A stretch of DNA of 64,000 bases from Candidatus Daviesbacteria bacterium (GTDB taxonomy: Bacteria > Patescibacteriota > Microgenomatia > Daviesbacterales > UBA10151): positions 43,188 through 107,187 of the forward strand of contig JACPKM010000001.1 in NCBI GenBank assembly GCA_016187025.1, read 5' to 3'. Under the pieces are notes generated by a model. That model saw only the letters and a list, made by a program, of their open reading frames with translations, searched no databases and had not been told where the DNA came from. Position numbers and translations under genes: made by a program. This document shows, piece after piece, positions 12,277 through 43,402 of this stretch (positions within the stretch are counted from its first letter, which is position 1; every line of letters begins with the position of its first letter).

Positions 12277-15200
12277 CTAACATGCAACATACTCATCCCA
12301 GCATTTGATATTAAGCTCATCTGCCTTTTTGCAAGATATAGCTAAAATAAACTCTGTTGCAGATTGTAAATTAGTCAAAAGCGGCACTCCTGTATCAATA
12401 CACACCCTTCTTATCACATATCCATCCCGCTGATCAGAGGCAGACTCTCCAGGAATACTAATGTTGATAGCCAAATCTACCCGGTTGTTACTAACTAAAT
12501 CTATTGCCGAAGGCGATCTGCCCTCAGATATTTTAAACACTCTAGTATTTTTAATCCCATGATCTTTGAGAAGTTGCGAGGTATTTTTGGTAGCATAGAT
12601 TTTTAAATTTAGCTTTGAGATTTCTTGTGCTGCTTCCAAAAACTCCATCTTATTTTTATCTCCTCCTATCGAAACAAATACCCCCTTTTGAGGAATCTTT
12701 CCACCAGTTGACAATATTGCTTTAAGAAAAGCTTCATGTAGATCTTCTCCAAAACAGCCCACTTCCCCAGTAGACAACATCTCCACCCGAAGCTTTGGAT
12801 CGGCTCCTTTTATCCTATTAAAGGAAAACTGAGACGCTTTTACTCCTACATAGTCTAAATTTAAAGTATTAAAGACACAATCTAGCCTATTACCTAAAAT
12901 TGCCTCAACTGCAATCTCCACAAAGTTATTTTTGGTTACTTTTGACACAAATGGGAAAGACCTGGAAGCCCTTAAATTAAGCTCAATTACCATCACTTTA
13001 TTGTCTTTTGCCAAAAATTGAATATTAAATGGCCCGGTAATATCCAGAGCCTTTATTATGGCTCTGGCATCATTTTTAACCTGCCTTATTGTTTCTATAA
13101 AAAGCCTTTGAGGTGGTAAAACCAAGGTTGCATCTCCTGAATGAACTCCGGCATTTTCTATATGCTCAGAAATAGCATAAATCACCAGCTCCCCGTTACT
13201 GGCAACTCCATCAATTTCAATTTCTTTTGCATTTTCTATAAATTTTGATATAACAACAGGGTATTTAGGAGAAACTTGTGTAGCTTGTGTTAAATACCTT
13301 TTAAGCTCCGGTACAGAGTAAGCTACATTCATCGCGCTTCCTGATAAAACATATGAAGGCCTCACCATTACCGGAAAGCCAATTTTTTTGGAAAAAGCAT
13401 GTGCCACCTCTGAGTTTTTTAACTCCTGCCAAGCAGGTTGTGAAATATTTAAGCTATCCAGTAATTTACTAAACTTGTGTCTATTTTCTGCAATATCAAT
13501 ACTAACTGGATCTGTTCCCAGAATTGGAACTTTTTTCTCATATAAAGGAATTGCTAGATTATTAGGAATTTGTCCACCAAAGCTCAAAACTATTTTTCCT
13601 CCTTCCAAATCATAAATATCCAATACTCTTTCCAAGGTAAGCTCTTCAAAATAAAGCTTGTCTGCATTATCATAATCTGTTGAAACCGTTTCAGGATTAC
13701 AGTTTATGATTATTGTTTCCCAGCCCTTTTTCTTAAAAGAAAGTGCTGCTGTTACACAACACCAGTCAAACTCTACTGATGATCCAATCCTATACGGCCC
13801 AGAACCTAATACGATTACCTTCCTTCTTTCCCCCTTTCCACTTTCCCCTTGTTCTGACTCCTCTCCATGGTAAGTTAAATACAAATAATTAGTTTTAGCA
13901 GGATATTCAGCTGCCAGTGTATCGATGTGCTTAACCTTTGGTAAAATAGCCCACCCTTTTCTTAACTGCCTTATATCTTGTTCATCTTTCTTAAATACCT
14001 GAGCAATCAAATTATCTGAAAAACCTAATTTTTTTGCCTGAAGAAGATTATGCTTACTGAGCTTAAGTTTTTTTTCTTTTAATCTCTTTTCAAAATTAAC
14101 AATTTCCAAAAGCTGATAAAGATACCACCTATCAACACCTGTTTCATTATAAATTTCATCAACTGAGGTGCCTTTGGCCAGTTCTCCTGCTACCGAAAAA
14201 ATTCTTTGTGTATTTGGAGAAAGTAACTTCTTAGAAGAAACATTTATTTTTGATTTTCCACCAAGCAGGCCATCCTGACCATTTCCCAAAGATCTTATGG
14301 CTTTTTGTAAGCTTTCAGGAAAGCTTCTACCTATGGCCATTACCTCCCCCACGCTTTTCATCTCAGATCCAATGGTCTCTGATGCTCCAACAAATTTTTG
14401 TAAATCCCACTTTGGCACTTTTACCACAATATAGTCCAAGCTTGGCTCAAAAAAGGCTGAGGTTGATTTAGTGACACTGTTTTTCAACTCAGAGAGTGTA
14501 TACCCCAGGCCAATTTTGGCAGCAACATATGCCAAAGGATAACCAGTAGCTTTTGATGCAAGAGCTGAGGAGCGCGAAAGCCTGGCATTCACCTCAATCA
14601 CTCTGTATTCATTGCTTTGGGGATTTAGAGCAAACTGGATATTACACTCTCCCACAATCTTTAGCTGTTCAATTACTTTCAAAGATATCTGCCGTAACAG
14701 ATGATATTGGTAGTTGTTTAAAGTTTGCGAAGGTGCAACTACAATACTCTCCCCTGTATGTATTCCCAATGGATCCAAGTTTTCCATATTACAAACAGTA
14801 ATCTTGTTACCCTCGCCATCCCTGACTATTTCGTATTCAATTTCCTTCCAATGTTTTAAATATTCCTCAATTGCGACCTGAGGTGCATGTTTTAAGGCTT
14901 TAGAGACCACCTGAGTTAACTCTTTTTGGTTGTAAACAACAGCTGAGCCCAATCCTCCCAAAGAGTACCCGGATCTAACTAAAAGAGGAAATTGTAAATT
15001 CTTAATAACTTCTAAGACCTCGTTTAGACTACTGGCAAAACCGCCTTTGGGGATCAAAACACCAATTTTTTCCAACTCCATGGCAAAAAGTTTTCTATCT
15101 TCAGTAATTTCGATGGTTTTTGCTGCTGTTCCTAAAACTTTGACATGGTTTTTTTCCAAAATACCTGATTTTGCCAAACTTAAACCACAATTAAGGGCAG

Positions 15201-15498: not shown

Positions 15499-16542
15499 CT
15501 AAAGATAAGTTAAAAATTCATCAAACAAATATCCCCCATCAGTTGGACCTGGGCTTGCTTCAGGATGAAACTGAACTGATAAGAATGGTTTTTTGACATG
15601 TCTTACCCCTTCATTTGTGCCATCATTTAAGTTTATAAACCATTCTTGCCAATTATTCGAAAGAGTTTTGCTACTGATGGCAAAACCATGATTTTGAGAG
15701 GTGATAATAGCCTTTTTTGAAATCAAATCTTTAACTGGCTGATTTTGGCCTCTATGACCAAATTTCAATTTATAGGTATCAGCCCCAGCTGCTAGTCCCA
15801 AAAGCTGACTTCCTAAACATATACCAAAAGTAGGAACATTCTCATCAATTAATTGCCTGATTGTATCAATTGTCTCTTTGGCTTGCTTTGGGTCTCCCGG
15901 ACCATTAGAAATCATGACCCCATCAAAGTTTAAGTTGTTTTTTATAGGGTTAAAGTTCCAGGGAACTACTGTTATTTTAACTTTTCTTTTTAAAAAGCTT
16001 TTTATGATATTTGATTTGGCTCCACAATCTATCAAAATAATATGTTTTTTTCCTTCCCCAAATGTTTGCGGTTTATCTACACTGACAAAAGGCAATACAT
16101 TTTCTTTATTCGGATCATAACTTTCCCCCTTTCCGCTTTCCCCTGACTCAATTCTTCCCAGCATCACTCCCCTTTCCCTTAATTTTCTTACCAAAAATCT
16201 GGTGTCAATATTAAAAAGCCCAGGAATATTATCTTTTTTTAGCCAATCACTTAAAGTTTTTTGACTTTCAAAATGAGATGGGGTGTCAATATAATTTTGT
16301 ACAATTACTCCCTTAACCTGAATTTTTTTAGATTCCCAATACTTTGTATCTGGAATTCCATAATTTCCCACTAAAGGATAAGTTAAAACAAGAATCTGAC
16401 CATAATAAGAAGGGTCGGTCAGGCTTTCCACATAACCCACCATTCCTGTGTTAAAAACCACCTCTCCGGAAATGTTTGTGATAGCCCCAAAAAAATCACC
16501 TTCAAATGTGTTTTGATCTGCTAGTATTAATTTACCTTTCAT
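15499..16542 (-). CDS. carA: carbamoyl-phosphate synthase small subunit (glutamine amidotransferase)
   Basis: CarA N-domain followed by a class I GATase (GICLGSQ...HRG...NHG). Confidence 0.9.
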   Translation of the reverse strand: MKGKLILADQNTFEGDFFGAITNISGEVVFNTGMVGYVESLTDPSYYGQILVLTYPLVGNYGIPDTKYWESKKIQVKGVIVQNYIDTPSHFESQKTLSDWLKKDNIPGLFNIDTRFLVRKLRERGVMLGRIESGESGKGESYDPNKENVLPFVSVDKPQTFGEGKKHIILIDCGAKSNIIKSFLKRKVKITVVPWNFNPIKNNLNFDGVMISNGPGDPKQAKETIDTIRQLIDENVPTFGICLGSQLLGLAAGADTYKLKFGHRGQNQPVKDLISKKAIITSQNHGFAISSKTLSNNWQEWFINLNDGTNEGVRHVKKPFLSVQFHPEASPGPTDGGYLFDEFLTYL

Positions 16543-18181: not shown

Positions 18182-19029
18182 AAATATGTCCCCCTACCAC
18201 CTAACTGAATCTTTTCAATATTAGTTTTGCATTTTTCACAAGGATGACCATCTAGTCCGTAAACATAGGCATAATCTAAAAAATAGCCTTTCTGGCCCTC
18301 AGCATCCACAAAATGGGCTCTGGTTGACCCACCATATCTTATTCCCTCCTCCAAAGACTTTATTATCCCTTTATACAGAGCTTTGAACTGTTCATCAGAT
18401 AATTTAGAAACCTTTGTTCTGGGGTCAACTTTGGCATCAAAGCAAGCTTCATTGGCATAGATATTACCTACTCCAGCCACCACTTGAGGATCCATGATGG
18501 CTACTTTAACAGGCATGCTCTTGTGTTTTAACAGATTCTGTTTTAAAAGTTGCCAGTTAAACCCTTTTTCCAATGGTTCCGGCCCCAAGTTTTTCATAAA
18601 CTTTACACTTTGCACTTTGAACTTTTCACTTACTCTAACCCACCCAAATCTTCTTTGGTCGTTAAAATATAAGTGGGAACCATCACTAAAACTAAAGATT
18701 ACTCTGGTATGACTATTTGGCATTTGATCCCTCATATCAGGAGTTGGATGCCCGCCTATAAAACTTTCCCCTTGACCCTTTCCGCTTTCCCCTTTCCAAA
18801 TCAATTGTCCTGTCATCTTAAGATGAAATAATAAAGTGATATCACTACTTAAATCTATACCTAGAAATTTAGCTCTTCTCCAAATATTGAGCACTTTTTG
18901 ACCCTCTGCCTGATTTGGATTTCCAGTGAAAGATTTTGGGGAAAGTATTTGAATTTTTTTGATTGTTAAACCAATAATTTTCTTTTGCAACCCTAATTTT
19001 ATTGTCTCTACTTCGGGTAACTCCGGCAT
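18160..19029 (-). CDS. mutM: formamidopyrimidine-DNA glycosylase (Fpg/MutM)
   Basis: N-terminal MPELPEVE and a C-terminal zinc finger CEKC...CPTCQ. It carries about 19 extra residues including GESGKGQGES. Confidence 0.9.
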   Translation of the reverse strand: MPELPEVETIKLGLQKKIIGLTIKKIQILSPKSFTGNPNQAEGQKVLNIWRRAKFLGIDLSSDITLLFHLKMTGQLIWKGESGKGQGESFIGGHPTPDMRDQMPNSHTRVIFSFSDGSHLYFNDQRRFGWVRVSEKFKVQSVKFMKNLGPEPLEKGFNWQLLKQNLLKHKSMPVKVAIMDPQVVAGVGNIYANEACFDAKVDPRTKVSKLSDEQFKALYKGIIKSLEEGIRYGGSTRAHFVDAEGQKGYFLDYAYVYGLDGHPCEKCKTNIEKIQLGGRGTYFCPTCQK

Positions 19030-23273: not shown

Positions 23274-25380
23274 GATCAACAATCACTGGCACGGAAAGGG
23301 TTAAGGCATTTTCCATTTTGTCCTTGACCATTTTGGCAGTCTCTTTAACAAATTTTGGATTACATTCAAACAAAAGTTCATCGTGTATTTGCAGAATCAT
23401 ACAGCAATTTTGAGTTTTGAGTTTTGAATTTTGAATTTCTTCGTCTATTTCCACCATCGCCTTTTTAATCATGTCAGCGCTAGTACCCTGAATAGGATGG
23501 TTTACTGCTGCCCTTTCCCCAAAAGCTTTTAACATTCGGTTGGATGCCTGAAGCTCCGGTATATACCTTTTTCTACCCCAAATAGTCTCAACAAACCCAT
23601 TTTTATAGCCTTGCTCTAAAACCTGGCCCATCCATTCTTTTACTTTAGGAAACTTTGCAAAGTACTCATCTATGTAGGTTTTGGCTGTCTGGTAATCTAT
23701 ACCCAATTGTTGAGACAGCGCATGGGCTCCTTGCCCATAAAGGGTGGCAAAGTTCATGGTTTTACCCACATTTCTTTGCTCTCTTGTTACCTGATCAACT
23801 GGAACTTTAAAGATTTTTGAGGCTGTTAGAGTATGAATATCTATGCCTTCTTGAAATGCTATTTTAAGGTTTGGGTCATCGGATAAATGGGCTAAAATCC
23901 TAAGCTCAACTTGAGAATAATCAGCTTTTAGTAAAACTTTTCCTTTGGGAGCAATAAAAACCTTTCTAATTTCCCCGCCTAATTGTCCTCTGATAGGAAT
24001 GTTTTGTAAATTCGGGTCTTGGGAAGAAAGCCTACCTGTGGCAGCCCCTTCTACATTGAAAGTGGAATGAATTCTACCATCCTCCTTAACATATTTTGGC
24101 AAAGCATCAATATAGGTTGATATTAGCTTAAACAACTGACGATACTGCAGTAGTAACGGAATCACAGGATGGGCTGCGGAAAGCTCCCTTAAAGTCCCCT
24201 CATCTGTAGACCTACCGGTTTTGGTTTTTCTTACAACAGGCAATTTCAGCTCATCAAATAAAACCTCAGATAACTGTTTTGGGCTATTTAAGTTAAATTG
24301 GTGGCCAATTTTGGCATAAATTTCCTCTTCTATTAAACTTAGTTGTTTTTTTAGCTCGTTACCCATTTTATTTAAAAGCTTTAGATCAATTAATACTCCA
24401 TTTTCAGACATCTTTTCCAAAACTGGCTGAACAGCCAGATCAAGGTCAGTGGTAGTAGAGGAAGTATAAGTTAAGATTTCAGGATTATTGGTTTTTAACT
24501 CCGCATCCTGAGGACCTGGTAGACGGGCAATCAAACTTTTAAATTGTAGTTCTTCAAATAGTTTAACAGCTTCTTCATGATTGTAGTCATAAACCCGGCA
24601 TTTGGCTAAATCTAACTTAATAGGCGCTCCTTGCTCGATAGTTGCCAGCTCTTTGCTCATCACAGCAGATTCAGCGCCTTCTGATAAAAGTAATTGTATT
24701 CTTTGAGGTAGTGTTTTTAAATTTTCCGGGCGGTAGATTTTTTCTATAGTTTCAAATTGTAAAATAAGTTTTGTAGCAGAAACCTCTCCTATCCCTCCTA
24801 CACCGGGAATATTATCTGATGCATCACCTGCCAGAGCTTTATAGTCAACTAAATTTTTCGGCATAAAGCCAAACCTTGCCACAAATTCTTCTTCCCCATA
24901 AAGCCCTACATCTTGTAAAGTCTTTTTTGGCATTAACACTTTTACTCTCTTACCAATAAGCTGCATAATATCCCGGTCTCCTGTAACTACAATTACTTCC
25001 AGGTTTTTTTCTTTTTCTCCTGCTTGTTTTACCAAAGTCCCAATTAAATCATCTGCTTCGTACCCAGCAAGGCTAAACTCAGGAATATTTAAGGTATGCA
25101 CTACCTCATGCACTCTTTTGTATTGGGAGGATAAACCATCATCTGCCGGTCCTCTGGTAGATTTATATTGGGTATAGGACTGATGGCGAAAAGTAGGCCC
25201 TTTTTCATCCCAGGCAACTGCAATAAAATCAGGTGTCAGCTCGTTTATGGAACGCAAAAGCATTGAGCAAAACCCATAAACTGCATTAACCAGCTCCCCG
25301 TTTGAGGTAGTAAGAGGCGGGGTGGCATGGTAGGCCCGGTGAAGTAGGGCATTTCCATCTACTAAACATAACCTTTTCAT
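23227..25380 (-). CDS. polA: DNA polymerase I (5'-3' exonuclease plus polymerase; short form)
   Basis: N-terminal LVDGNALLHRAYHA; polymerase motifs DYSQVELR and QIHDELLFE. At 717 aa it appears to lack most of the 3'-5' exonuclease domain. Confidence 0.9.
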   Translation of the reverse strand: MKRLCLVDGNALLHRAYHATPPLTTSNGELVNAVYGFCSMLLRSINELTPDFIAVAWDEKGPTFRHQSYTQYKSTRGPADDGLSSQYKRVHEVVHTLNIPEFSLAGYEADDLIGTLVKQAGEKEKNLEVIVVTGDRDIMQLIGKRVKVLMPKKTLQDVGLYGEEEFVARFGFMPKNLVDYKALAGDASDNIPGVGGIGEVSATKLILQFETIEKIYRPENLKTLPQRIQLLLSEGAESAVMSKELATIEQGAPIKLDLAKCRVYDYNHEEAVKLFEELQFKSLIARLPGPQDAELKTNNPEILTYTSSTTTDLDLAVQPVLEKMSENGVLIDLKLLNKMGNELKKQLSLIEEEIYAKIGHQFNLNSPKQLSEVLFDELKLPVVRKTKTGRSTDEGTLRELSAAHPVIPLLLQYRQLFKLISTYIDALPKYVKEDGRIHSTFNVEGAATGRLSSQDPNLQNIPIRGQLGGEIRKVFIAPKGKVLLKADYSQVELRILAHLSDDPNLKIAFQEGIDIHTLTASKIFKVPVDQVTREQRNVGKTMNFATLYGQGAHALSQQLGIDYQTAKTYIDEYFAKFPKVKEWMGQVLEQGYKNGFVETIWGRKRYIPELQASNRMLKAFGERAAVNHPIQGTSADMIKKAMVEIDEEIQNSKLKTQNCCMILQIHDELLFECNPKFVKETAKMVKDKMENALTLSVPVIVDLKVGKNWGEMKSLIF
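23405..23439. repeat. heptamer tandem repeat (TTTTGAG x 2, TTTTGAA x 2) inside polA
   Basis: caattttgagttttgagttttgaattttgaatttc; encodes IQNSKLKTQN. Confidence 0.7.
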
Positions 25381-28828: not shown

Positions 28829-29149
28829 TTACTTAATTTTTGCTCCAGGTTCTACTTTTTTGAAAGGTTTTAGCAGAACCGGCTTTTTGCCTGATGCACA
28901 CAAAATCATCCCTTGGGAATGCAACCCCATCATCACTCTTGGTTCTAAATTAGCAACAAATATAAACTGCTTACCTACTAAATCTTGCGGCTTATACCAT
29001 TGTTTGATCCCAGATAGAATCTGACGAGGAGTATTTTCCCCTAAATCCACTTTCAATTTAATCAGCTTTTCAGATCCTTCCACCTCTTCTGCTTCTAAAA
29101 CAGTGCCTACTTTTAATTCAACTTTCAAAAAATCATCAATGCTAATCAT
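28829..29149 (-). CDS. tRNA-binding domain protein (CsaA/Myf-like)
   Basis: An OB-fold tRNA-binding domain sequence (FLKVELKVGTVLEAE...), 106 aa. Confidence 0.6.
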   Translation of the reverse strand: MISIDDFLKVELKVGTVLEAEEVEGSEKLIKLKVDLGENTPRQILSGIKQWYKPQDLVGKQFIFVANLEPRVMMGLHSQGMILCASGKKPVLLKPFKKVEPGAKIK

Positions 29150-29502
29150 ATTTCTAAAACTGCTTTTATGGCATCAGCAACCTCAGCCATTTTAATCTTA
29201 GACACCCTCCCAATCCTTTTAATTAATCTATTTTTATCCATAGCCCTCATCTGGTTTATAACCAAAGCTGAATCCCTACTTAAACCTCTCTGTCTAACAA
29301 ATTTTACAGCATCAGGGCCCAGAAATTGCGGAATAATTGAGCTAAAAGGGATTGCAATTACTGTAGGTAAAATCTGATTGAGAGTATTATTTGATATAAC
29401 CAAGGCTGGTCGTTTCTTACGCATCTCCCGTCCATAGGGCGGTTCGAGGTCGGCAATATAAATCTCTCCCCTTTTAGGGTATCCTGCTGTCAACTTCTGC
29501 AT
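29146..29502 (-). CDS. type II toxin, MazF/PemK family
   Basis: KRGEIYIADLEPPYGREMRKKRPALVIS. Confidence 0.7.
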   Translation of the reverse strand: MQKLTAGYPKRGEIYIADLEPPYGREMRKKRPALVISNNTLNQILPTVIAIPFSSIIPQFLGPDAVKFVRQRGLSRDSALVINQMRAMDKNRLIKRIGRVSKIKMAEVADAIKAVLEI

Positions 29503-30917: not shown

Positions 30918-31913
30918 TTAAAAGTAGTCTAATTTCATAGCTTTTTTAACTTCTGCCAAAGTTTTTTGGGCCTTTATCCTGGCTTTTTCAGTTCCTTCTT
31001 TTAAGATTCTATCTACCAGCTCAGGCCGATTTTCGTATTCAGCCCGTTTCTTTCGGATAGGATCCAGGAAATTATTTAAAACTTGCACCAGGTACTTTTT
31101 AACCTCGATATCACCAACTTGGCCTTTTGAGTAAAGTAGTTTGTAGTTGGTAGTTTGTAGTTTGTCGCTTTCAGAAGCAAATGCATCCAAATAGATAAAT
31201 ACAGGATTTCCTTCCACATGTCCTGGGTCAGTTGCTCTAATTCTTGTAGGATCTGTATACATACTCATGACCTTTTTTCCCACCTCATCAGCAGAATCAG
31301 TTAAAAAGATAGCATTGCCTAAGGATTTGCCCATTTTGGCCTGTCCATCAGTCCCAGGAAGAGTAGGTACCTCCCCTATTAAGGGCTCTGGTATAGGAAA
31401 GACGTCTCCATAAAGATTATTAAACTTAATAGCAATATCCCGGGCATATTCCACATGAGCCTTTTGATCTTTACCAACTGGTACTAAATTAGCTTTAGGA
31501 AGTAATATATCAGCAGCCATAAGCACAGGGTAATAAAATAAACCCACAGTATCTTCTGAGCCCTGGTCAAGTTTTTCTTTTAAAGCAGGCTGCCTGGCTA
31601 TTAGAGGCCTAGGAGTCAAAACACTTAAGAAATAGGCTAGCTCCAAAACTTCCGGCACTTTAGATTGAACAAAAAAAGTCACTTTTTCAGGGTCCAGCCC
31701 CACAGAAAGGTACCCTAACATTAAACCGCGGATATTTTTTTTCAGCTGGTCAGTACGGTCAAAGTGAGTTGTGAGTGCATGTAAATCCACCAAAGGAATA
31801 AACATCTCATACTCCAGTTGCAGCTTTACCCTATTTTTAAGCGATCCTATATAGTTTCCCAAATGGAAACTATCATAGGTGGGTCTATCTCCTGTGAGAA
31901 TTCTCTTTTTCAT
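30918..31913 (-). CDS. trpS: tryptophan--tRNA ligase
   Basis: TGDRPTYDSFHLGNYIG (HIGH region) and KMGKSLGN (KMSKS). Confidence 0.9.
   Translation of the reverse strand: MKKRILTGDRPTYDSFHLGNYIGSLKNRVKLQLEYEMFIPLVDLHALTTHFDRTDQLKKNIRGLMLGYLSVGLDPEKVTFFVQSKVPEVLELAYFLSVLTPRPLIARQPALKEKLDQGSEDTVGLFYYPVLMAADILLPKANLVPVGKDQKAHVEYARDIAIKFNNLYGDVFPIPEPLIGEVPTLPGTDGQAKMGKSLGNAIFLTDSADEVGKKVMSMYTDPTRIRATDPGHVEGNPVFIYLDAFASESDKLQTTNYKLLYSKGQVGDIEVKKYLVQVLNNFLDPIRKKRAEYENRPELVDRILKEGTEKARIKAQKTLAEVKKAMKLDYF
31136..31168. repeat. heptamer tandem repeat (TAGTTTG-like x 4) inside trpS
   Basis: gtagtttgtagttggtagtttgtagtttgtcgc. Confidence 0.7.
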
Positions 31914-32605: not shown

Positions 32606-33349
32606 TTACTTTAATCGACGGGGTAAAACTCCGTCATATTCTATTTCTTCATTTGGAACTCTTCTGAATGGTTTTTCGCGGACCCACTCTTCAAAGATAT
32701 GGGCAATGAGTCCCACCACCCTGCCGATTATGAAAAAACCCTTTCCCAGTCTATAATCAAAACCCATATCAGATACAACTGCTGCAATTGCCCCGTCTAC
32801 ATTGATAGGGATTTTTTTGCCTTTAAGTCTTTCCAGCTCTGCTTCAACTGCAACTGCCAATTCACAATGTTCACCAAAAAACCCAAGTGTTTTGGCTTTT
32901 TCAAAAACTTGCTTGGCTCTTGGGTCTTCTGTATATACTTTGTGTCCAAAACCGGGAATCCTATCTCCTGAGGATATCACCTTTTCCACCAATTTTGAGG
33001 CTGCAAGACCCATTTGTAAAAGATGCGCACACTCCTCAACCGCCCCGCCGTGATATTCCCCTATTCCTAAAACCCCGGCAGCCACAGCAGCCTGCATGGG
33101 ATTACCTGCTGAAGCAGAGTTTCTGGCGTTTGTCACAGAAGGCGGACCCATGCCGTTATCGATAGTGGAGATTAAAATGCTATCAAGCATTGCTCTTTCT
33201 TTTTCTGTCGGCAGCTCCCCTTTTAATTCCAGCCAGATAGCATCGGTAAAATTTACATTATCTATTAAATCAGTGATTTTGTAGCCGTGGATGTGTACTT
33301 CCCCATCCACAATCCCAGATATTGATGTCTTCCACTTTTTGTCAGACAT
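32606..33349 (-). CDS. citryl-CoA lyase-like protein (citrate synthase C-terminal-domain homolog)
   Basis: From MSDKKW: citrate-synthase catalytic region with GFGHKVY and the D...Vxxx motifs, but only about 247 aa because the CS N-terminal half is missing. The ORF-track start at 33454 is probably spurious. Confidence 0.55.
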   Translation of the reverse strand: MSDKKWKTSISGIVDGEVHIHGYKITDLIDNVNFTDAIWLELKGELPTEKERAMLDSILISTIDNGMGPPSVTNARNSASAGNPMQAAVAAGVLGIGEYHGGAVEECAHLLQMGLAASKLVEKVISSGDRIPGFGHKVYTEDPRAKQVFEKAKTLGFFGEHCELAVAVEAELERLKGKKIPINVDGAIAAVVSDMGFDYRLGKGFFIIGRVVGLIAHIFEEWVREKPFRRVPNEEIEYDGVLPRRLK

Positions 33350-33393
33350 AGTGACAGGTACAGTAAAGGTGACAAGTGACAAGAAATAAAAAT

Positions 33394-33417
33394 AACTTGT
33401 TACTTGTGCCTTGTTAC
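33394..33417. repeat. direct repeat A flanking the four-helix-bundle gene
   Basis: AACTTGTTACTTGTGCCTTGTTAC. Its partner, AACTTGTTACTTGTCACTTGTGCCTTAT, is at 33791-33818. An imperfect long hairpin, GGTGACAAGTGACAAG...CTTGTTACTTGT, lies at 33368-33408. Confidence 0.6.
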
Positions 33418-33420
33418 TAG

Positions 33421-33807
33421 TCACCCTCCTTTCTGAGAAATGTATAGCTTCCAAATTATATGACCTGTTTCAGCTCTTAGCAAGGAGATCTCTTGGAAGT
33501 CTCTATCTGCTACCAATTTTCTTTTATAAGCAAAGTCCAGTAAGTATTCTGTTTCCGCAAGAGAGCCTAACGCTATAGACAGAAACCTATGAAATTCTTT
33601 CTTACTATTCCTTGCGTGACCTTCAACTATATTCGTGGGAACCGATAAACACGCTCTTTGCAGTTGGGAGACTAAGCCAAATATCTCGTTCTTAGGAAAA
33701 GTAAGAGTTAAATCGTATACTTTGTGCACTAGTTCATCAGCTTTTTGCCATGCGATTAGCTTCTTGTAGCCGAACAACGAACTGTTTTCTAACTTGTTAC
33801 TTGTCAC
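33421..33807 (-). CDS. four-helix-bundle protein (23S rRNA intervening-sequence protein family)
   Basis: YKKLIAWQKA...SQLQRACLSVPTNIVEG...FLSIALGSLAETEYLL is typical of PF05635/TIGR02436. Confidence 0.7.
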   Translation of the reverse strand: MTSNKLENSSLFGYKKLIAWQKADELVHKVYDLTLTFPKNEIFGLVSQLQRACLSVPTNIVEGHARNSKKEFHRFLSIALGSLAETEYLLDFAYKRKLVADRDFQEISLLRAETGHIIWKLYISQKGG

Positions 33808-33818
33808 TTGTGCCTTAT
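33791..33818. repeat. direct repeat B flanking the four-helix-bundle gene
   Basis: AACTTGTTACTTGTCACTTGTGCCTTAT; partner of 33394-33417 with one extra CACTTGT heptamer. Confidence 0.6.
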
Positions 33819-34702
33819 CACCTTATCAGTACTGGTATCTCATCCGGAGTCTTGGCAATTTCCACTCCGGCCTCTTTTAAGCTATTAATTTTAGATTTAT
33901 AGCTGCCCTTTTCTCCGTAAACTATTGCCCCTGCATGCCCAAGTTTTGTGCCTTGAGGTAAGTTTTCGGCAAATAGTCCAGAAATAAACGCCACCACTTT
34001 TTTAGTAAACCCTCCACTTTTTATTAATTCTGCTGCTTCTTCCTCATAAGTCCCACCAATTTCTCCAAAGATTACAACAGCTTTTGTTTGTTCATCTTTT
34101 TCAAATTCTTTTAACAAATCTACAAAGGTTGAACCTACTAATATATCCCCGCCAATTCCCACAACGGTCGACTGGCCAATACCGTTTTTTGTTAGAATCC
34201 ATGATACTTCTGAGGCCATCCCTCCTGATTTGGAGATTACTCCAACAGATCCCTTCGAATAAACTCCCCTCGGATCATCACCCCCTATTGAGCCTACTTT
34301 ACCAATACCCGGAGAAATAATACCGATAGATGACGGACCAACCATTTTAACCCCATTTTGCTTGGCTAAAGCAATTGCTTTTGCACTATCTTGAACAGGA
34401 ATATGTTCTGTTAAAACATTTATTAAAGGAATTTTGTTTTTTATGGCTTCTTCCATGGCCCCAAATGCAGCAAAATTTGGGACAGCTATGAAAGAGGTAG
34501 TAATCCCCGGGTGATTTTCTAATGCCTCTGTAATAGAGTTATAAACAGGTACCCCATGCACTTCCTGTCCCCCTTTACCAGGAGTCACACCAGCCAACAC
34601 TTTAGTACCGTAATTTCGCATCTGCAAAGCCACCTTGGACCCTTCTTTGCCTGTTATGCCCTGTATTAAAACTTTAGTTTTATCAGTAACTAGTATTGCC
34701 AT
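33818..34702 (-). CDS. succinyl-CoA synthetase alpha-like / citryl-CoA synthetase small subunit-like (CoA-binding)
   Basis: SucD-type CoA-binding and ligase-CoA domains (VLIQGITGKEGS...; GHAGAIV). Confidence 0.8.
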   Translation of the reverse strand: MAILVTDKTKVLIQGITGKEGSKVALQMRNYGTKVLAGVTPGKGGQEVHGVPVYNSITEALENHPGITTSFIAVPNFAAFGAMEEAIKNKIPLINVLTEHIPVQDSAKAIALAKQNGVKMVGPSSIGIISPGIGKVGSIGGDDPRGVYSKGSVGVISKSGGMASEVSWILTKNGIGQSTVVGIGGDILVGSTFVDLLKEFEKDEQTKAVVIFGEIGGTYEEEAAELIKSGGFTKKVVAFISGLFAENLPQGTKLGHAGAIVYGEKGSYKSKINSLKEAGVEIAKTPDEIPVLIR

Positions 34703-35858
34703 AAGCTAGATCCACCATTGTTTTTGCTGTAGCTGTCATTGGGGTTTCCCGCCCATATATATGAAAATCAAAACCTTCTTTTTCTCCAATCTCTTTTAAA
34801 GCCTCAAAGGCTTCCTTATCCCTTGGCCCTCCCCTCCTGATTACAATTGGATAATTTGGTTTAGGACTCAGTTCCCTTAAACCTTCTACAAATCCCATCA
34901 GGGTTTCAAAAATATCCGTAAAGTTGGCTGTCCCCCCTACAAACCAGCAGCCCTTTAAGTTAGGTTTAGAAAGTACTATTTTTGTTAATCTTTCTAGTTT
35001 CTCTCTGGGAGGATTTCCTGAGTGTTCAGTATAGTTTGCGCTCTTGCCGCCATATGCTACAAGCGCATCCATATTCACAATAGATCCTCCCCCTCCTGCT
35101 GCAATCACTGCAATATCTCCCTCCAAATCCCAATAAACAGAGCCTGCAGTACCACGGTGATCCCCTTCATCTATTTTCCGGGCTTCAATTTCTGCCTCAG
35201 TTGGAGCCCTGCCAAACAAATTCCTTTCAGGAAATTTAATCTCGCGTCTAAAATCAGCATCATCATCCAAAATTATTTTGGCGTCCAACGCCATAATATA
35301 ATTTTGCCCTGAGCGAGCGGAGCGAGTCGAAGGGTTCTTAGCGACTACCAACGGATTAATTTCTGCCAGTTCACAGTCATATTTGGTAAAAACTTCCCAA
35401 AGTTTTTTTGCTGTGCCTTTCAACTCCTCAGGAACATTTTCTCCTAAATATCCCTTTAAGATATCGACCTGGAAAGTTTTCACCTCTTTACCCTCTACTC
35501 CTGTACCTCCTTCACCAAAATTCAAAACCGGTCCTCTTGATTCTGTGGAATAAGAGAATGACAAGTAGTATTCCCTATCATAATCTACCATCTCCTCTAC
35601 TAAAACCTTATCTACTTTTTCTCCATTAACAATCCTGCCAAACAGTTTTTCTACTTCCCCCTTCACGCTTTCCCCTTCACCCTTAACTGTAACTATTCCA
35701 CCTACATCTGCACGCTTACCGGACAAAACCTGGACTTTTAAAACACAGGGTCCTTTAATAGTAACTTCTTCATCCGCCAAAGTTACTAGCTGTGACTGAG
35801 GAACATTTATTCCACAATTTTTAAAAAGTTGTTTTCCTTCAAATTCGTATAAGATCAC
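34683..35858 (-). CDS. succinyl-CoA synthetase beta-like / citryl-CoA synthetase large subunit-like (ATP-grasp)
   Basis: N-terminus MILYEFEGKQLFKNCGINVP resembles SucC/AclB ATP-grasp proteins. It carries the GEGESVKGE motif. Confidence 0.75.
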   Translation of the reverse strand: MILYEFEGKQLFKNCGINVPQSQLVTLADEEVTIKGPCVLKVQVLSGKRADVGGIVTVKGEGESVKGEVEKLFGRIVNGEKVDKVLVEEMVDYDREYYLSFSYSTESRGPVLNFGEGGTGVEGKEVKTFQVDILKGYLGENVPEELKGTAKKLWEVFTKYDCELAEINPLVVAKNPSTRSARSGQNYIMALDAKIILDDDADFRREIKFPERNLFGRAPTEAEIEARKIDEGDHRGTAGSVYWDLEGDIAVIAAGGGGSIVNMDALVAYGGKSANYTEHSGNPPREKLERLTKIVLSKPNLKGCWFVGGTANFTDIFETLMGFVEGLRELSPKPNYPIVIRRGGPRDKEAFEALKEIGEKEGFDFHIYGRETPMTATAKTMVDLAYGNTSY

Positions 35859-35950
35859 TTCGTTAACCTTCCCTTTTTGCTTCGCAAAAACGTAGAAGTA
35901 TGGTATTTAGTATAACGTATGCTGGGTATGATTCCTAATCTTAGCTAAAG

Positions 35951-36022
35951 TAGCAGGGATGGGGCTCGAACCCATAACCTCTTCGTTATGAATGAAGTGC
36001 TCCACCATTGAGCTACCCTGCC
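35951..36022 (-). tRNA. tRNA-Met (anticodon CAT), elongator-like
   Basis: Cloverleaf GGCAGGG-TA-GCTC...GAGC-A-CTTCA-TTCATAA-CGAAG-AGGTT-ATGGG-TTCGAGC-CCCAT-CCCTGCT-A; G1-U72, Y11:R24. Confidence 0.8.
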
Positions 36023-36052: not shown

Positions 36053-36553
36053 TAGGCTGCATATCTAAGGCCATCAATCCACCCTCTAATCTTAGTTAAT
36101 AATTCGCTACTTCTTCGAACCCTTATCCTCAGGACCCCATAGTATTTTTCTGGATTTTCATATTTTTTCAACCAAATAGATTTGTGATAAAAAGGTTTTT
36201 CAAACTGTTCTTTTGGAATTTTTGTGGTTTTCGACCAAAAATCTTCAATTTGTTCTTTACGATACTCATGTGATTCATTAAATTCAGCTCTTAAAATTAA
36301 TTCTTCCCGTTTTATATCAAAAGACCTTGCGAGTCACTTAATAAAAAATTTCACCATCTGGGGATCAGAGTTGCAGAAACCTACTCTACCCTCCTTCAAA
36401 CTCTTAAACCCTTCTGCCCAATAAAGAGATAAACCTGTCAAAAATAGTTCTTTCTCAGTCAGACGAGCTATTTCCAACTTTGCCTTTTTAAAGACAGTAT
36501 TGGTTCTAGTAACTTTCTCCAGATGCTTCTGCTTCGCTAATTTCCGGAGGTGT
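36053..36553 (-). pseudogene. degraded ORF (frameshifted, no start codon) between two tRNA genes
   Basis: Minus-strand conceptual translation ...LEIARLTEKELFLTGLSLYWAEGFKSLKEGRVGFCNSDPQMVKFFIK* then, after a 1-nt shift, LARSFDIKREELILRAEFNESHEYRKEQIEDFW...GWIDGLRYAA*. Possibly a mobile-element (homing-endonuclease-like) ORF remnant. Confidence 0.3.
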
Positions 36554-36748: not shown

Positions 36749-37038
36749 GCGGGGAAGTGTAACGGCTGCACGCGAGGCTCGATTTTGGGCTCTCTCATAA
36801 GCAATTATGCTAGATAACCTGGCTCATAACGGTGGAAACTTCTTCAAAAGTAATACCGTGGGAAGTTTCGATAATATCGGAACCCCGTAACGACTAATAT
36901 TCCAGCTACCGGATAACTCGGAACTAAATTGGAATTATACGCCGGGCTCCTCTGATTAGGGGATGATGGTATAGTCTATTCTTTATTTAACTAAAGAGCA
37001 TAATCTCGCAGTAGTAGGTTCGACTCCTACCCCCGCAA
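36749..37038 (+). tRNA. tRNA(CAU) split by a putative group I intron of about 218 nt in the anticodon loop (exons 36749-36780 and 36999-37038)
   Basis: Exon 1 is CGCGGGG-AA-GTGT-AACGGCT-GCAC-G-CGAGG-CT. Exon 2 is CATAA-TCTCG-CAGTA-GTAGG-TTCGACT-CCTAC-CCCCGCA-A. Joined, they form a canonical cloverleaf with C1-A72 as in initiator tRNA. The 5' exon ends in U and the intron ends in G; the intron contains ACGACUAA, which is P7-like. Confidence 0.5.
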
Positions 37039-37543: not shown

Positions 37544-38605
37544 ATGGTTAAAAATCGCAAGTTTGAAAAGAGGATAACTCAACTTCCTCCTGAAATATTT
37601 CTTAAAATAGCTCAGATCGATGAGTTAAAAGGTCAATGGACTGCAGGAGCTAATCTAAACCCCCAACTGTTAGGCAGGCTTAAAAGGTCAGTTTTAATTA
37701 CCTCTACTGGTGCTTCTACAAGAATTGAGGGCTCAAGACTTACTGACGACGACGTTGACAAATTAATGCAAGGTATTGCTATCCAAAAGTTTGCTGATAG
37801 GGATAAACAGGAAGTTCAAGGCTATTTTGAACTCCTCAAAATAATTTTTGATTCCTGGGAACATATTATATTTAGTGAAAATTCCATTAAGCACCTACAT
37901 CAGGAGCTCTTAAAGTATGTGGAAAAGGACCAGGATCACAGAGGTAAATATAAATCACAAGATAATAAGGTTGAAATGGTAGATGAGCAAGGTAGAAGAA
38001 TTGGAGTTATCTTTGACACTACTCCGGCCTACTTAACCCCTAAACAGATGCAGGAGTTAGTTGAATGGACTAAATATGCTTTGGAGGCTAAATTGTCTCA
38101 TCCCCTCATTATCGTAGGCAACTTTTTAGTAGAATACTTAAATATTCACCCATTTAAAGACGGAAATGGTAGACTTTCCAGAATTCTAACTAACCTGCTT
38201 TTACTTCAGTCGGGTTATCTATACATGCCTTATATATCTCACGAGAAGTTAGTTGAGGATCAAAAACCACAATACTATCTTGCATTAAGAAAAAGCCAAA
38301 GAACTTTCAAAAAAGGTGCTGGAGATATAGCTCCCTGGCTTGAGTTCTTTCTAGATATAATTTTAGCCCAATCGAAAGAAGCAATAAGTTTAATGGCTGG
38401 AGAGAATGTAGAGGATATTTTATCTAATAAACAAATTGCAGTCTGGCAATACCTACAAAAGAAAGCTGAATCTACACCTAAGGAAATAGCAAAGGAAACT
38501 AAAGTCGCTTATGCAACTGTGCGCCAAACACTCTCAAAACTACTGGATCTAAAGAAAATTGAGAGAGTCGGAATGGGCAGAAGTTCCCGTTATAGGAAAA
38601 TCTAA
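37544..38605 (+). CDS. Fic-family protein with a C-terminal wHTH
   Basis: Fic motif HPFKDGNGRLSR. Confidence 0.8.
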   Translation: MVKNRKFEKRITQLPPEIFLKIAQIDELKGQWTAGANLNPQLLGRLKRSVLITSTGASTRIEGSRLTDDDVDKLMQGIAIQKFADRDKQEVQGYFELLKIIFDSWEHIIFSENSIKHLHQELLKYVEKDQDHRGKYKSQDNKVEMVDEQGRRIGVIFDTTPAYLTPKQMQELVEWTKYALEAKLSHPLIIVGNFLVEYLNIHPFKDGNGRLSRILTNLLLLQSGYLYMPYISHEKLVEDQKPQYYLALRKSQRTFKKGAGDIAPWLEFFLDIILAQSKEAISLMAGENVEDILSNKQIAVWQYLQKKAESTPKEIAKETKVAYATVRQTLSKLLDLKKIERVGMGRSSRYRKI

Positions 38606-42496: not shown

Positions 42497-43402
42497 TTGA
42501 CAAAGATGGCCTATAAATTTACAATATACGCTATGATCAACTTAAAAGATGCTCATCAGCAATTTATAGGCCACTTAAAAGGCAGGTCCCGTGCCACTGC
42601 TACTATCATAGCTTATAGCAAGGATATTGATCAACTGATTTCTGACCTTGAATCCTCAGGTAAGCAAAACCCACAAGATGTGAGCTTAGAAGATTTACAA
42701 ACCTTTATGGAAAAATTGTCCAAAGAAAACTACACCCCCAAATCTATTTCAAGAAAAACAAATTCTACCAAAACCTTTTTTAAGTTTTTAAAATCCTCAG
42801 CTCTCATCACAGAAGATCCGGCATCAGACTTGGAGCATCCTAAGTTTGAAAATAAACCACCAAGGATACTATCAAAGCTAGAATACCGAGCCTTAAGGGA
42901 TGCAGCCAGAGCAGATACCAGAATGTTGGCTGTTATAGAACTACTACTGCAAACCGGTATTAGAATTGGCGAGCTGGCCAAACTTCGTTTGGAGGATCTA
43001 AGCCTGGAAGATTCTTCTGCCACTTTGCATGTTCCCCCATTTGAGGGAACCAATGAAAGAACTATTCCTTTAAATAAACCTGCTGTCGAGGCTTTACAAA
43101 AATACTTGGAAGTAAGGTCTAAAACCCAATCACATTCACTCTTTGTTACCAAAACCGGCAGACCTCTACTTATAAGAAATATCAGAACTGCAATTGACAG
43201 ATATTTTAAAATTGCAGGGATCAAAGGGGCAAAGGTAAATGATTTAAGACACACTTGGGTTGCTCATCAGCTTCAATCAGGTACCTCTTTACTGGTTGTT
43301 TCCAAGCTTGCTGGACATAAAAGACTATCAACCACTGAAAGATATCTTCAATTTCTCCAAAATCATTCCGGCGAGGGAAAAGTTAAACTCGAGGAACTAT
43401 AA
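42497..43402 (+). CDS. tyrosine site-specific recombinase (XerC/XerD-like integrase)
   Basis: C-terminal catalytic region LRHTWVAHQLQSG...HKRLSTTERYL (R-H-R-Y), 301 aa. Confidence 0.8.
   Translation: MTKMAYKFTIYAMINLKDAHQQFIGHLKGRSRATATIIAYSKDIDQLISDLESSGKQNPQDVSLEDLQTFMEKLSKENYTPKSISRKTNSTKTFFKFLKSSALITEDPASDLEHPKFENKPPRILSKLEYRALRDAARADTRMLAVIELLLQTGIRIGELAKLRLEDLSLEDSSATLHVPPFEGTNERTIPLNKPAVEALQKYLEVRSKTQSHSLFVTKTGRPLLIRNIRTAIDRYFKIAGIKGAKVNDLRHTWVAHQLQSGTSLLVVSKLAGHKRLSTTERYLQFLQNHSGEGKVKLEEL

Follow-up and report, generated by a model that had tools for sequence, protein, structure and literature searches.

How a four-helix-bundle (4HB) gene of the PF05635/TIGR02436 ("S23p") family came to fill the 468-bp gap between the ccsB and ccl genes of a Candidatus Daviesbacteria (CPR) genome, and what the repeats around it represent, is the question raised by the 64-kb window, that is, the whole stretch of DNA analysed here. 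PF05635/TIGR02436 is a large family of unexplained function and a homologue of Avd, a factor of DGRs. Its genes lie scattered in operons and rRNA genes, on plasmids and in R-M and CRISPR loci; the subfamily present in the window alone has well over a thousand relatives. In the order of the operon, the features of the locus are as follows.

34683-35858, ccsA, ATP-grasp/citrate-binding, adjoining the ccsB side
33818..34702, minus strand, ccsB-like gene, succinyl/citryl-CoA synthetase (CoA-ligase) alpha-type, upstream neighbour
33790..33835, minus strand, left array (L), tandem 7/8-nt units
33421-33807, minus strand, mechanical 4HB open reading frame, 128 aa, GTG start at 33807
33421..33777, minus strand, 4HB / S23p-family coding sequence, 118 aa from TTG at 33777
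33393..33425, minus strand, R1, direct copy of L at the 4HB stop codon
33384..33392, minus strand, A/T-rich loop separating R1 from R2
33350..33383, minus strand, R2, inverted array, on the coding strand CTTGTCACTTGTCACCTTTACTGTACCTGTCACT
32606..33349, minus strand, ccl-like gene, citrate-synthase C-terminal domain, downstream neighbour

The 4HB gene, the direct repeat and the 3' hairpin that an earlier sequence-only reading had described are all present where it had placed them, and the element lies in the sense orientation relative to the ccsB-ccl operon. The first 10 codons of the 128-aa frame are the translated left array, and the 118-aa start is the one annotated for the NCBI homologue P0001, which is 99% identical. 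On the coding strand, L consists of GATAAGGT twice, followed by GCACAAGT, GACAAGT and AACAAGT, with period-7 and period-8 tandem rows at 33792-33828. It serves as the 5' leader for the 4HB gene and overlaps the final codons of ccsB, which come from the array, together with the ccsB stop (33818-33820). R1 plays two parts, closing the direct repeat on its 3' side and supplying the 5' arm of a local hairpin, while R2, the reverse complement of both L and R1, adjoins the ccl start codon (33347-33349).

The two members of the direct repeat (33393-33425 and 33790-33822) are 82% identical without gaps, and the form AACTTGTTACTTGT[CACTTGT]GCCTTRT matches at 20/21 positions when one 7-nt unit is allowed as an indel. 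With at most one mismatch, ACTTGTNACTTGT occurs five times in the 64-kb window, always at the 4HB locus, against 0.44 occurrences expected, and 0/100 shuffles reach five. L is also related to the sequence before the ccl start through the inverted repeats I1-I3 (18-26 nt, 77-89%, arms 393-423 nt apart). This inverted relation had been missed by the sequence-only reading. As RNA, the 3' hairpin (33350-33425) is predicted to fold at -24.6 kcal/mol (z = -2.3; 1/200 shuffles as good); the whole-element MFE structure pairs L with R2, and the whole-element fold is no better than its shuffles (z = 0.26). The hairpin had been called terminator-like, a description that is not supported, as it lacks a T-run and the consensus scan called no intrinsic terminator there.

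Across related elements, the constant feature is an upstream tandem heptamer array (ACAAGTR units) together with its reverse complement downstream. The core of the L array has 19 invariant columns across 7 related elements, and R2, aligned over 9 elements, is evidently the universal right end. R1 is present in L002, L012, L017 and L113, short in L115, and absent from the orthologous elements of L112 and L024 and from the paralogue of L114; because it is missing in these three, it is an optional internal part. The unit of the element is a left tandem heptamer array, the 4HB gene, an optional direct array copy with its loop, and an inverted array. The role of bracketing ends, given earlier to the direct repeat, passes to the inverted heptamer arrays.

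Whether this unit is an insertion can be read from the relatives. The ccsB-ccl junction is uninterrupted, with a gap of -1 to 53 bp vs 468 bp in the window, in 11 of the 25 Daviesbacteria loci compared (L001, L004, L007-L011, L014, L019, L021, L023), the closest relative, L001, among them; ccsB identity in the 25 loci is 73-88%. None of the 11 empty ccsB-ccl sites holds ACAAGT arrays. Empty junctions without repeats argue that the element is an insertion, as had been proposed, and that the repeats are part of the insert; comparison of the sequences thus shows an insertion polymorphism at the ccsB-ccl junction. The feature is probably a resident small selfish cassette of the S23p/four-helix-bundle type, of one kind with the ORF-bearing 23S rRNA intervening sequences (IVSs).

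Close homologues (73-87% identity) lie at the same ccsB-ccl junction, and because the same-junction orthologues (L012, L017, L112, L113, L115) have saturated synonymous sites, the window copy is old, and a recent hop is not supported. Occupied sites are scattered over the ccsB+ccl neighbour-joining tree, a patchiness that could reflect one old insertion with repeated loss, or recombination between lineages. The earlier reading had named two things that would count against its interpretation: the same gene at the same place in relatives but without repeats, and repeats that belong to a common intergenic motif. The first is partly borne out, as relatives do have the gene there. The repeat, in contrast, is no motif shared by the intergenic regions of the genome, since in the examined Daviesbacteria DNA the ACAAGT-type repeat was seen nowhere but at 4HB elements or at gene-less remnants of them.

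Given such an age, a domesticated gene of the ccs operon has to be weighed, and among the alternatives it survives best, although it is unlikely. It would be inherited vertically, for instance as an RNA-binding regulator, with the arrays as cis-regulatory or translation-control sites and the patchiness as loss only, without mobility. The same-junction orthologues with saturated synonymous sites fit it, as does the 4HB protein, which its substitution pattern shows to be under strong purifying selection (dN/dS <= 0.12; pN 0.05-0.21 vs pS 0.56-0.90). The arrays, too, are shown by their conserved sequence to be kept beyond neutral expectation, given those saturated sites; the purine-rich upstream arrays adjoin the start codon, and 4HB genes are co-oriented with their neighbours (43 cases vs 4). 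However, loss must then have restored a tight, coupled junction 11 times, and the elements are found well outside this one gap. A paralogue that is 72% identical lies in an unrelated context, ahead of a class-I aaRS (L114), with GTRACAAG / CTTGTYAC arrays as in the window. Other 4HB subtypes occupy another junction of the ccs operon, between ccsA and ccsB (L021, AAGGGGA / CTTCACC arrays), and a site after trpS (L015 and L020, CCAAGTA / TACTTGG arrays). In L017, the ccsA-ccsB gap contains a hairpin without a gene, and the right arm of this hairpin is identical at 33/33 positions to R2 of that genome's own 4HB element. Plasmids, R-M loci and CRISPR loci also have related elements, and family members sit within rRNA genes as IVSs (PMC4990558, PMC11270868). 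The suggestion made at the outset, that 4HB genes are tiny cassettes, is supported, for they do form self-contained units at many different gene junctions.

Degenerate copies are present as well, in the form of internally deleted elements of 127-149 bp (L003, L013), the one in L013 retaining the first 16 codons. Where two 4HB genes lie within one locus, divergent proteins (24-34% identity) differ in their array unit and similar ones (74-100%) share it. These pairings show the unit type tracking the type of protein and not the host; a repeat unit determined by the host is ruled out by two 4HB types in one locus with different units. A strict rule of one protein, one unit is weakened by a second 4HB subtype (L003, L013, L015, L020), which has similar CAAGT-type units.

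The packaging extends over the family. Arrays of 7/8 nt flank 72% of 76 metagenomic 4HB genes vs 7% of 60 control ORFs, and the flank autocorrelation of 4HB genes has its maximum at period 7 (mean 0.65 vs 0.38-0.55 at other periods). The best TRF period in 4HB flanks is 7 in 88 and 8 in 38, with a median copy number of 4.3-4.4, and isolate plasmids (Geminocystis, Nostoc PCC 7120, Pseudanabaena and Gemmatirosa) have the array pattern as well. In 68% of the 76 4HB genes, the inverted complementarity of the flanks lies above the 99th percentile of controls (about 1% in controls), and direct flank similarity does so in only 11%; what the family shares in general is the inverted relation rather than the direct one. 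It is shown by these surveys that the array architecture is general across the 4HB family and that gene-less hairpins occur. Such packaging around most 4HB genes suggests a type of tiny selfish element that had not been described, and turns the vague idea of a "selfish IVS protein" into a defined element with testable parts.

It could still be asked whether arrays and genes are independent phenomena, the heptamer arrays being a genome-wide slippage product near which 4HB genes merely land. TRF on 353 kb of Daviesbacteria DNA finds 94 period-7 arrays vs <=48 for any other period, many of them inside conserved genes and distant from any 4HB gene, and heptamer arrays have been reported as abundant in Xanthomonas, Nostoc and Beggiatoa without mention of 4HB genes (PMC4692102, PMC4679880). 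Even so, slippage is a very unlikely explanation when the empty ccsB-ccl sites hold no array, the arrays are inverted around the gene in 68% of cases, the unit type tracks the 4HB type within one genome, and the same units go with the same subfamily to a new site (L114). Still less likely is classical transposition, by which a small transposon or MITE-like unit would carry direct repeats as a target-site duplication, the very origin that had been considered for the repeat. Direct repeats of about 21-28 nt do bracket the gene, and terminal inverted repeats exist in I1-I3. The 11 empty junctions, however, hold no copy of the repeat, and the 3' direct copy is missing in L112, L024 and L114. The repeat copies differ in length by one complete 7-nt unit, in the manner of tandem arrays, direct flank similarity falls far behind inverted complementarity among the 76 family members, and no transposase family was matched in the element. 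An integron-like cassette, with the 3' hairpin as an attC-type site and the junction as the attachment site of a tyrosine recombinase, is the least credible alternative: a lone ORF without a promoter, an imperfect hairpin behind it, other small cassettes at the same junction in relatives and a Xer-type tyrosine recombinase 9 kb away (42497-43402) recall it, but the hairpin is made of tandem heptamers without GTTRRRY/RYYYAAC cores (the ends GTTAGAA and GTTATTT do not fit GTTRRRY), the recombinase has the usual XerC/D domain pair and lies apart from the element, the boundaries of the other cassettes differ, and the elements are single, at many unrelated junctions.

The small selfish cassette thus remains the favoured reading. 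In it, the arrays, to judge from their distribution, belong to the element and travel with the 4HB gene, and are not a duplicated target. The sole ORF of the element is that of the 4HB protein, with no recognisable gene for a transposase, recombinase or reverse transcriptase; no mobilising enzyme was identified, and a trans-acting one is possible.

The protein itself is a clear family member, matching PF05635 at 116.7 bits (cut-off 33.8, E 6.8e-34) and TIGR02436 at 109.2 bits (cut-off 24). Its AF2 model (pLDDT 92.4) has predicted helices at residues 18-34, 39-65, 69-95 and 101-124, with residues 1-6 disordered. The model has the up-down four-helix-bundle of 2GSC/2RLD, superposing on PDB 2GSC with a TM of 0.82-0.96 and an rmsd of 0.7-0.8 A, and phmmer relates the sequence to 2GSC at E 5.5e-19. 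In the fold ranking, 2GSC and 2RLD come first, followed by the DGR Avd structures 4DWL and 8UB7. Both 2GSC and 2RLD were deposited with five chains, and the Xanthomonas S23p protein is a homopentameric toroid (PMC4990558). A HEPN-like Rx4-6H motif was dropped, as its histidine is not conserved in the homologue alignment.

A working scheme can be drawn from these parts. The element would be transcribed through read-through from the host operon. The putative homopentameric 4HB protein might recognise its own 4-5-unit arrays or the hairpin, an interaction that could serve the maintenance, expression or spread of the element. RNase III might cleave the paired ends, as it does in rRNA IVSs, and so leave the insert nearly harmless. 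In a count over the inverted arms from 67 elements, G.U pairs on the sense strand, the signature of RNA pairing, number 71 vs 88 for A.C (p = 0.2); as G.U is not enriched over A.C, the symmetry may be at the DNA level, and RNase III processing is unsupported here.

Of known systems, the element is most closely related to the ORF-bearing 23S rRNA IVSs of Leptospira, Coxiella burnetii, Brucella and Xanthomonas, which carry the S23p ORF. Both have a PF05635/TIGR02436 protein in the sense orientation within the host transcript, inverted-repeat ends that enclose the ORF, and a sporadic distribution among relatives. In the Coxiella IVS, the inverted-repeat stem is cut by RNase III, and tandem GACAGAT heptamers of variable copy number lie directly 5' of the S23p ORF (PMC4990558), as the tandem heptamers do in the window. 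Its three heptamers are the sole precedent that a literature search found for a link between 4HB genes and heptamers (PMC4990558). At 428 nt the Coxiella IVS is of the same size class as the window element (~470-490 nt), and its ORF is decaying whereas that of the window is under strong purifying selection. Unlike the IVSs, the window element lies between protein genes of an operon and not in 23S helix 25 or 45, its arms have no G.U enrichment, its RNase III excision is predicted at most, and its subfamily often has the extra direct array copy that creates a local 3' hairpin. No rRNA lies in the 64-kb window, and none of the fetched loci has the clustered matches to conserved rRNA motifs of an rRNA-embedded example.

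Two other groups of repeats bear a resemblance. In foldback (FB) transposons, as in the 4HB element, the terminal inverted repeats are themselves made of short tandem repeats. As with FB transposons and MITEs, gene-less hairpin derivatives of the 4HB element occur beside gene-bearing copies; unlike them, it has no known or encoded transposase, shows no target-site duplication and resides in a bacterial host. Heptamer SSRs are known as the cyanobacterial STRR, GGGAATC of Xanthomonas, GGGGAYT of Nostoc and TAACTGA of Beggiatoaceae, with 70 convergent inverted heptamer pairs in X. campestris, and their origin and function have been called unexplained (PMC4692102, PMC4679880). They are likewise tandem 7-nt units of about four copies, intergenic between co-oriented genes and often placed before starts or after stops. 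In those reports a single unit dominates each genome and no connection to 4HB genes is drawn, whereas the elements of the window genome have differing units that bracket a 4HB gene or remnant. The 4HB elements are, in this regard, a concrete candidate source of the heptamer repeat abundance in several bacterial phyla. A broader and more tentative proposal, possible but on balance doubtful, is that PF05635 genes and inverted 7/8-nt arrays constitute widespread, self-recognising, foldback-like mini-elements, in which the homopentamer would read its own 4-5-unit array or hairpin, each protomer about one unit, as Avd its stem-loop. The 23S rRNA IVSs would then be the subset that landed in rRNA, and the bacterial heptamer excess would be at least partly their footprint, including the cyanobacterial STRR, the Xanthomonas GGGAATC pairs, the Beggiatoa TAACTGA and the in-gene arrays of the window genome.

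A few observations on the surroundings of the element may be added. Rfam finds no RNA family in or around it, only a tRNA-Met and a sub-threshold group I intron match 3 kb away. Sigma-70-like hexamers (TTGCTA-17-TATAAT, 33455..33483, minus strand) lie within the 3' end of the 4HB coding sequence and face ccl, and could possibly act as an outward promoter; they match the consensus at 10/12 positions, the region has 11 such sites vs 7.5 expected, and conservation of the hexamers is uninformative because they overlap the conserved LLRAETGHIIW codons. In relatives, the ccsB-ccl junction also gathers toxin-antitoxin-like pairs and GIY-YIG and NTase/HEPN cassettes, with boundaries that differ from those of the 4HB element, as the ccsB 3' end is duplicated there over 41 bp and arrays are lacking.

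Finally, Avd deserves mention in its own right. Avd (PDB 4DWL, 8UB7) shares a homologous 4HB fold with the window protein (Foldseek probability 1.0, TM 0.69-0.88), and all five protomers of the Avd pentamer take part in binding an RNA stem-loop (bioRxiv 10.1101/2023.10.23.563531). Its pentameric barrel is a possible precedent, by analogy, for a 4HB pentamer that would read a repeated or hairpin nucleic-acid site. The window protein differs in scoring 27.7 bits against the NCBIfam Avd model NF033474, vs a cut-off of 80, and the window has no RT-like ORF (phmmer with the RT of L013, E <= 10) and no TR/VR pair. An identity as a DGR accessory is ruled out by the sub-threshold model score and the lack of an RT in the window. 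A true DGR, with RT and Avd, is present in the relative L013, and its appearance is different from that of the 4HB element.

The ccs operon of the window lies on the minus strand, with a four-helix-bundle (4HB) family gene in its ccsB-ccl junction; 3' of ccl, a 127-aa ORF and then trpS follow on the same strand.

34683-35858, minus strand: ccsA (Pfam ATP-grasp/citrate-binding)
33818-34702, minus strand: ccsB (Pfam CoA-ligase)
33421-33807, minus strand: 4HB ORF, 128 aa (PF05635, 23S_rRNA_IVP)
33455-33483, minus strand: sigma-70-like site, TTGCTA-17-TATAAT, in the 3' end of the 4HB CDS, facing ccl
32606-33349, minus strand: ccl (Pfam citrate-synthase-C)

The 128-aa ORF matches PF05635 with 116.7 bits (Pfam, E 6.8e-34), and AF2 models it with high confidence (pLDDT 92.4) as a four-helix bundle. 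The model superposes on 2GSC, the Xanthomonas protein XCC0516 (TM up to 0.96, rmsd 0.7 A), and on 2RLD, Bacteroides BT_0352 of the 'S23 ribosomal protein family'; Avd, the accessory protein of diversity-generating retroelements (DGRs; 4DWL, 8UB7), comes next. The NCBI annotation of a 99%-identical protein corresponds to 118 aa from TTG at 33777; residues 1-6 of the longer ORF are disordered in the model.

Comparison of related genomes bears out the proposal, made by the sequence-only reading, that the gene is an insertion. The six window proteins were mapped onto 25 loci from Candidatus Daviesbacteria and Microgenomates MAGs, fetched with the ccsB protein (73-88% identity), and the junctions were compared. 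An uninterrupted ccsB-ccl junction, with a spacing of -1 to 53 bp, is seen in 11 genomes (L001, L004, L007-L011, L014, L019, L021, L023), none of which has ACAAGT-type repeats there; the window's 468 bp are therefore an insertion, and the repeats arrived with the insert. L012 and L017 have the same gene at this junction; in L002 it is truncated, and in L024 another small palindromic insert (TGTCATCCTGA...TCGGAATGACA) breaks it. Further occupied junctions were found in L112 (87% identity), L113 (73%) and L115 (79%), contigs reached through protein homologues. In a neighbour-joining tree of ccsB and ccl the occupied genomes are dispersed, and L001, to which the window is closest, has an empty junction.

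On the coding strand, the element runs from a left array (L) through the 4HB CDS to a direct array copy (R1) and an inverted array (R2). L is a tandem array of GATAAGGT twice, then GCACAAGT, GACAAGT and AACAAGT, which encodes the last codons and stop of ccsB and extends to the 4HB start. R1 repeats L in direct orientation at the 4HB stop codon and is followed by a 9-nt A/T loop; R2 ends exactly at the ccl ATG. Translated arrays also form the N-termini of many database homologues ('VTSNKL', 'VISDKQ', 'VTSDQVTSNQ'). Against 0.44 occurrences expected for the 64-kb window, ACTTGTNACTTGT has five, all of them at the 4HB locus.

The bracketing direct repeat noticed earlier was recovered by repeat search (33393-33425 and 33790-33822), its copies differing by exactly one 7-nt unit, and the 3' hairpin is present as well (-24.6 kcal/mol, z = -2.3). 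What had gone unnoticed is a second relation of the left repeat, which is likewise the reverse complement of the final 34 nt ahead of the ccl start (I1-I3). R1 is carried by the window, L002, L012, L017 and L113, and is short in L115; L112, L024 and the paralogue L114 lack it. Since L and R2 are present in every element compared, the direct repeat is an optional internal duplication; the invariant signature of the element is an inverted pair of tandem arrays. The idea of a selfish cassette stands together with the insertion, whereas direct repeats as a defining or target-derived feature do not survive the repeat-free empty sites and the copies without R1. Nor does the terminator reading of the hairpin, as no intrinsic terminator was called there.

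What is resident in the window is one copy of a cassette, co-oriented with the host genes, whose unit consists of array, 4HB gene, (array copy) and inverted array. Its presence at this site is optional; it is found at other junctions, too, accompanied by the same arrays, and leaves gene-less hairpins. In L114, a 72%-identical paralogue with the window's GTRACAAG / CTTGTYAC arrays precedes a class-I aminoacyl-tRNA synthetase gene, and a second, unrelated 4HB gene at that locus has TATCGCA / GCGATAA arrays. L021 carries a 53%-identical 4HB gene between ccsA and ccsB, with AAGGGGA units upstream and CTTCACC units downstream. A second subtype (N-terminus FDLEERTLNF) lies directly 3' of trpS in L015 and L020, its CCAAGTA-type and TACTTGG-type arrays abutting the neighbours' stop and start codons. 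The 127-149-bp inserts at the ccsB-ccl junction of L003 and L013 share the ends and 3' spacer of this subtype, that of L013 retaining its first 16 codons, and are internally deleted elements. In the ccsA-ccsB gap of L017 lies a gene-less hairpin, (ACAAGTA)n, loop and inverted array. Its right arm and R2 of that genome's own 4HB element, 2 kb downstream, agree at all of 33 nt; such a hairpin is the product expected of L x R1 recombination or of hairpin-module copying. Gene-less inverted arrays of other units occupy this gap in L002 and L022.

Seven window-type 4HB genes differ by 0.05-0.21 non-synonymous and 0.56-0.90 synonymous changes per site, with dN/dS of 0.03-0.12 where dS was computable; on these comparisons the 4HB protein is functional and the ccsB-ccl copy old. 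The L-array core has 19 invariant columns across all seven elements, and CTTGTTAC / TACTGTAC blocks are kept in R2. Given this invariance despite synonymous saturation, array sequence is constrained beyond its pairing ability. Selection on both protein and arrays keeps the cassette.

Whether the arrays act as RNA or DNA was approached through folding and pairing. The whole-element minimum-free-energy fold pairs L with R2, as in an intervening sequence (IVS) of 23S rRNA, but its energy is no better than that of shuffles, and Rfam gave no match for the element. On the sense strand, the inverted arms of 67 elements contain 71 G.U and 88 A.C pairs (p = 0.2); G.U pairs are not in excess, and hence the sense transcript bears no signature of RNA-stem selection. 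Purines make up ~60% of the upstream arm, which gives the arrays a polarity relative to the gene. The sigma-70-like site overlaps conserved 4HB codons; its promoter-like hexamers could relieve polarity of the insert.

Moreover, the arrays extend across the 4HB family. A profile of 36 homologues led to 80 metagenomic loci (40-62% identity), of which 76-78 4HB genes were analysed. Flank autocorrelation peaks at period 7 (mean maximum 0.65 versus 0.38-0.55 for other periods, 4-12), reaching at least 0.85 in 21% of the flanks upstream and 17% of those downstream as against 0-4% at other periods. A period-7 or period-8 flank array accompanies 72% of 4HB genes; among 60 control ORFs of these loci the share is 7%. 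TRF reports an array in 133 of 172 4HB flanks (best period 7 in 88, 8 in 38, 9 in 6) with a median copy number of 4.3-4.4. Similarity of the upstream flank to the reverse complement of the downstream flank exceeds the 99th percentile of cross-locus controls in 68% of 4HB genes, direct similarity in 11%. Unit sequence varies from element to element; where a locus has two 4HB genes, units differ at 24-34% protein identity and agree at 74-100%. Neighbours are co-oriented with the 4HB gene in 43 cases versus 4, where orientation was callable. The pattern recurs on complete plasmids of cultured bacteria, Geminocystis (AAAAGGG.. / ..CCCTTTT), Nostoc PCC 7120 (CCTCTGC x5) and Gemmatirosa (CTCCTGCC x4), and is thus no metagenome artefact. 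A further such plasmid is Pseudanabaena galeata pPg_01 (L118, NZ_CP112875.1 46268-46627), where a 4HB gene between cas6 and cas4 has ~15 CTAAAAG units upstream and ~10 CCAAAAG units downstream, direct rather than inverted; this placement agrees with PMC10910872, which lists 23S_rRNA_IVP as a CRISPR-associated domain.

The published record offers close parallels. The Coxiella 23S rRNA IVS is 428 nt long, with an end stem cut by RNase III and an S23p ORF inside; ahead of the ORF stand GACAGAT heptamers in tandem, two or three depending on the strain (Warrier et al. 2016, PMC4990558). The same paper cites a homopentameric toroid for the Xanthomonas protein, and earlier suggestions of IVSs as mobile-element remnants. 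23S_rRNA_IVP ORFs are also found in CPR rRNA genes (PMC11270868). Heptamer arrays are abundant in Xanthomonas (GGGAATC; 70 convergent pairs, four units preferred) and Nostoc (PMC4692102), and TAACTGA arrays in Beggiatoaceae, cyanobacteria and Bacteroidetes (PMC4679880); neither paper mentions 4HB genes, and full-text literature searches found no general link of the family to flanking arrays. The window's copy belongs to the S23p/IVS kind of element but lies outside rRNA, and regular inverted tandem-array packaging with hairpin derivatives appears undescribed as a class property.

The cassette encodes no transposase, recombinase or reverse transcriptase (RT), and only an Xer-type recombinase lies nearby, 9 kb away. 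Read-through of the ccs operon would express the cassette, and a pentameric 4HB protein would bind its own array or hairpin. Three things suggest such binding: the match of 4-5 units per array to five protomers, the tracking of protein type by unit type, and the precedent of Avd, a pentamer that binds an 11-bp RNA stem-loop in the DGR ribonucleoprotein, each of its five protomers contacting flipped-out bases with the same residues (bioRxiv 10.1101/2023.10.23.563531). This interaction could underlie maintenance or spread. The paired ends may perhaps be processed as in rRNA IVSs, an idea held weakly given the negative G.U test.

The ccsA-ccsB and ccsB-ccl junctions also collect varied small cassettes (L005, L006, L008, L012, L015-L018, L020, L022, L025), including NTase+HEPN, BrnT/BrnA-like pairs, GIY-YIG, PhoU+PiT, and a 77-82-aa protein paired with a 115-121-aa aspartyl-protease-like one. 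In L012, L016, L017, L022 and L025 they open with a TTGAC...TATAAT-like promoter, and after them comes an imperfect copy, ~41 bp long, of the ccsB 3' end (IAKTPDEIPxLLK*), an insertion signature different from that of the 4HB element. Between ccsA and ccsB of L013 (2409-4882) lies a complete-looking DGR with a 306-aa RT, a 98-aa Avd (NF033474, 70 bits), a 211-aa target gene and a repeated TR/VR-like segment. Three genomes (L003 5830-5990; L018 5835-5990; L023 3340-3500) share a conserved non-coding insert of ~150 nt (GCTCGTCATGGCAAAAAGCACC...CTAATTGCTTTTATGCTCATGAC) in the same gap, perhaps a small RNA or a further MITE.

Period 7 dominates tandem repeats in 353 kb of the lineage (94 arrays versus at most 48 for any other period). 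Arrays of ~4.3-5 units lie in frame within conserved protein-coding genes of the window and L001-L025, in the window at 35654-35684 (ccsA), 31136-31165 (trpS), 23406-23438 (polA), 8397-8430, 9561-9592, 13826-13848, 16121-16143, 18600-18631 and 18764-18797. They hold the same position across many Daviesbacteria genomes (ccsA nt ~165-181 in 17/26; trpS nt ~746-809 in nine), with a genome-specific unit (AGATTAA, ACAATTG, AATGGAC, TAATAGT, GGTGAAG, others). Each replaces ~11 surface-segment residues, length unchanged (EIKDLRLKIKE, NAQLTIDNL, KGEGESVKGEV); because three 7-nt units make seven residues, they encode heptad-periodic peptides. Recurrent short, variable in-frame inserts also mark several positions in the ccsA/ccsB loops of L013-L025 (GNPST..RSGPR, GKGKGG, HLRGELKLTSGEHLGG, TSDGGYEVDSSEV, the VILNPKGE...LRDSSLIAQNDR type), and ccsA codons NPSTRSARSGQ in the window (35304-35336). 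They look like gene-tolerated palindromic mini-elements, comparable to the Rickettsia palindromic elements; the palindrome that breaks the 4HB gene of L024 is of this kind.

A sub-threshold group I intron match (36770-36997, plus strand; 26 bits, gathering score 50, E 0.002) lies in a 1.5-kb stretch without long ORF, with tRNA-Met at 35950-36022 (minus strand). Adjoining it is a 47-aa ORF fragment (36334-36477, minus strand; LYWAEGF...) that is LAGLIDADG endonuclease-like, with no Pfam hit. Mobile or defence-type genes near the operon are as follows.

29146-29502, minus strand: PemK/MazF toxin
37544-38605, plus strand: Fic/DOC protein with TrmB-like HTH
42497-43402, plus strand: XerC/D-type tyrosine recombinase
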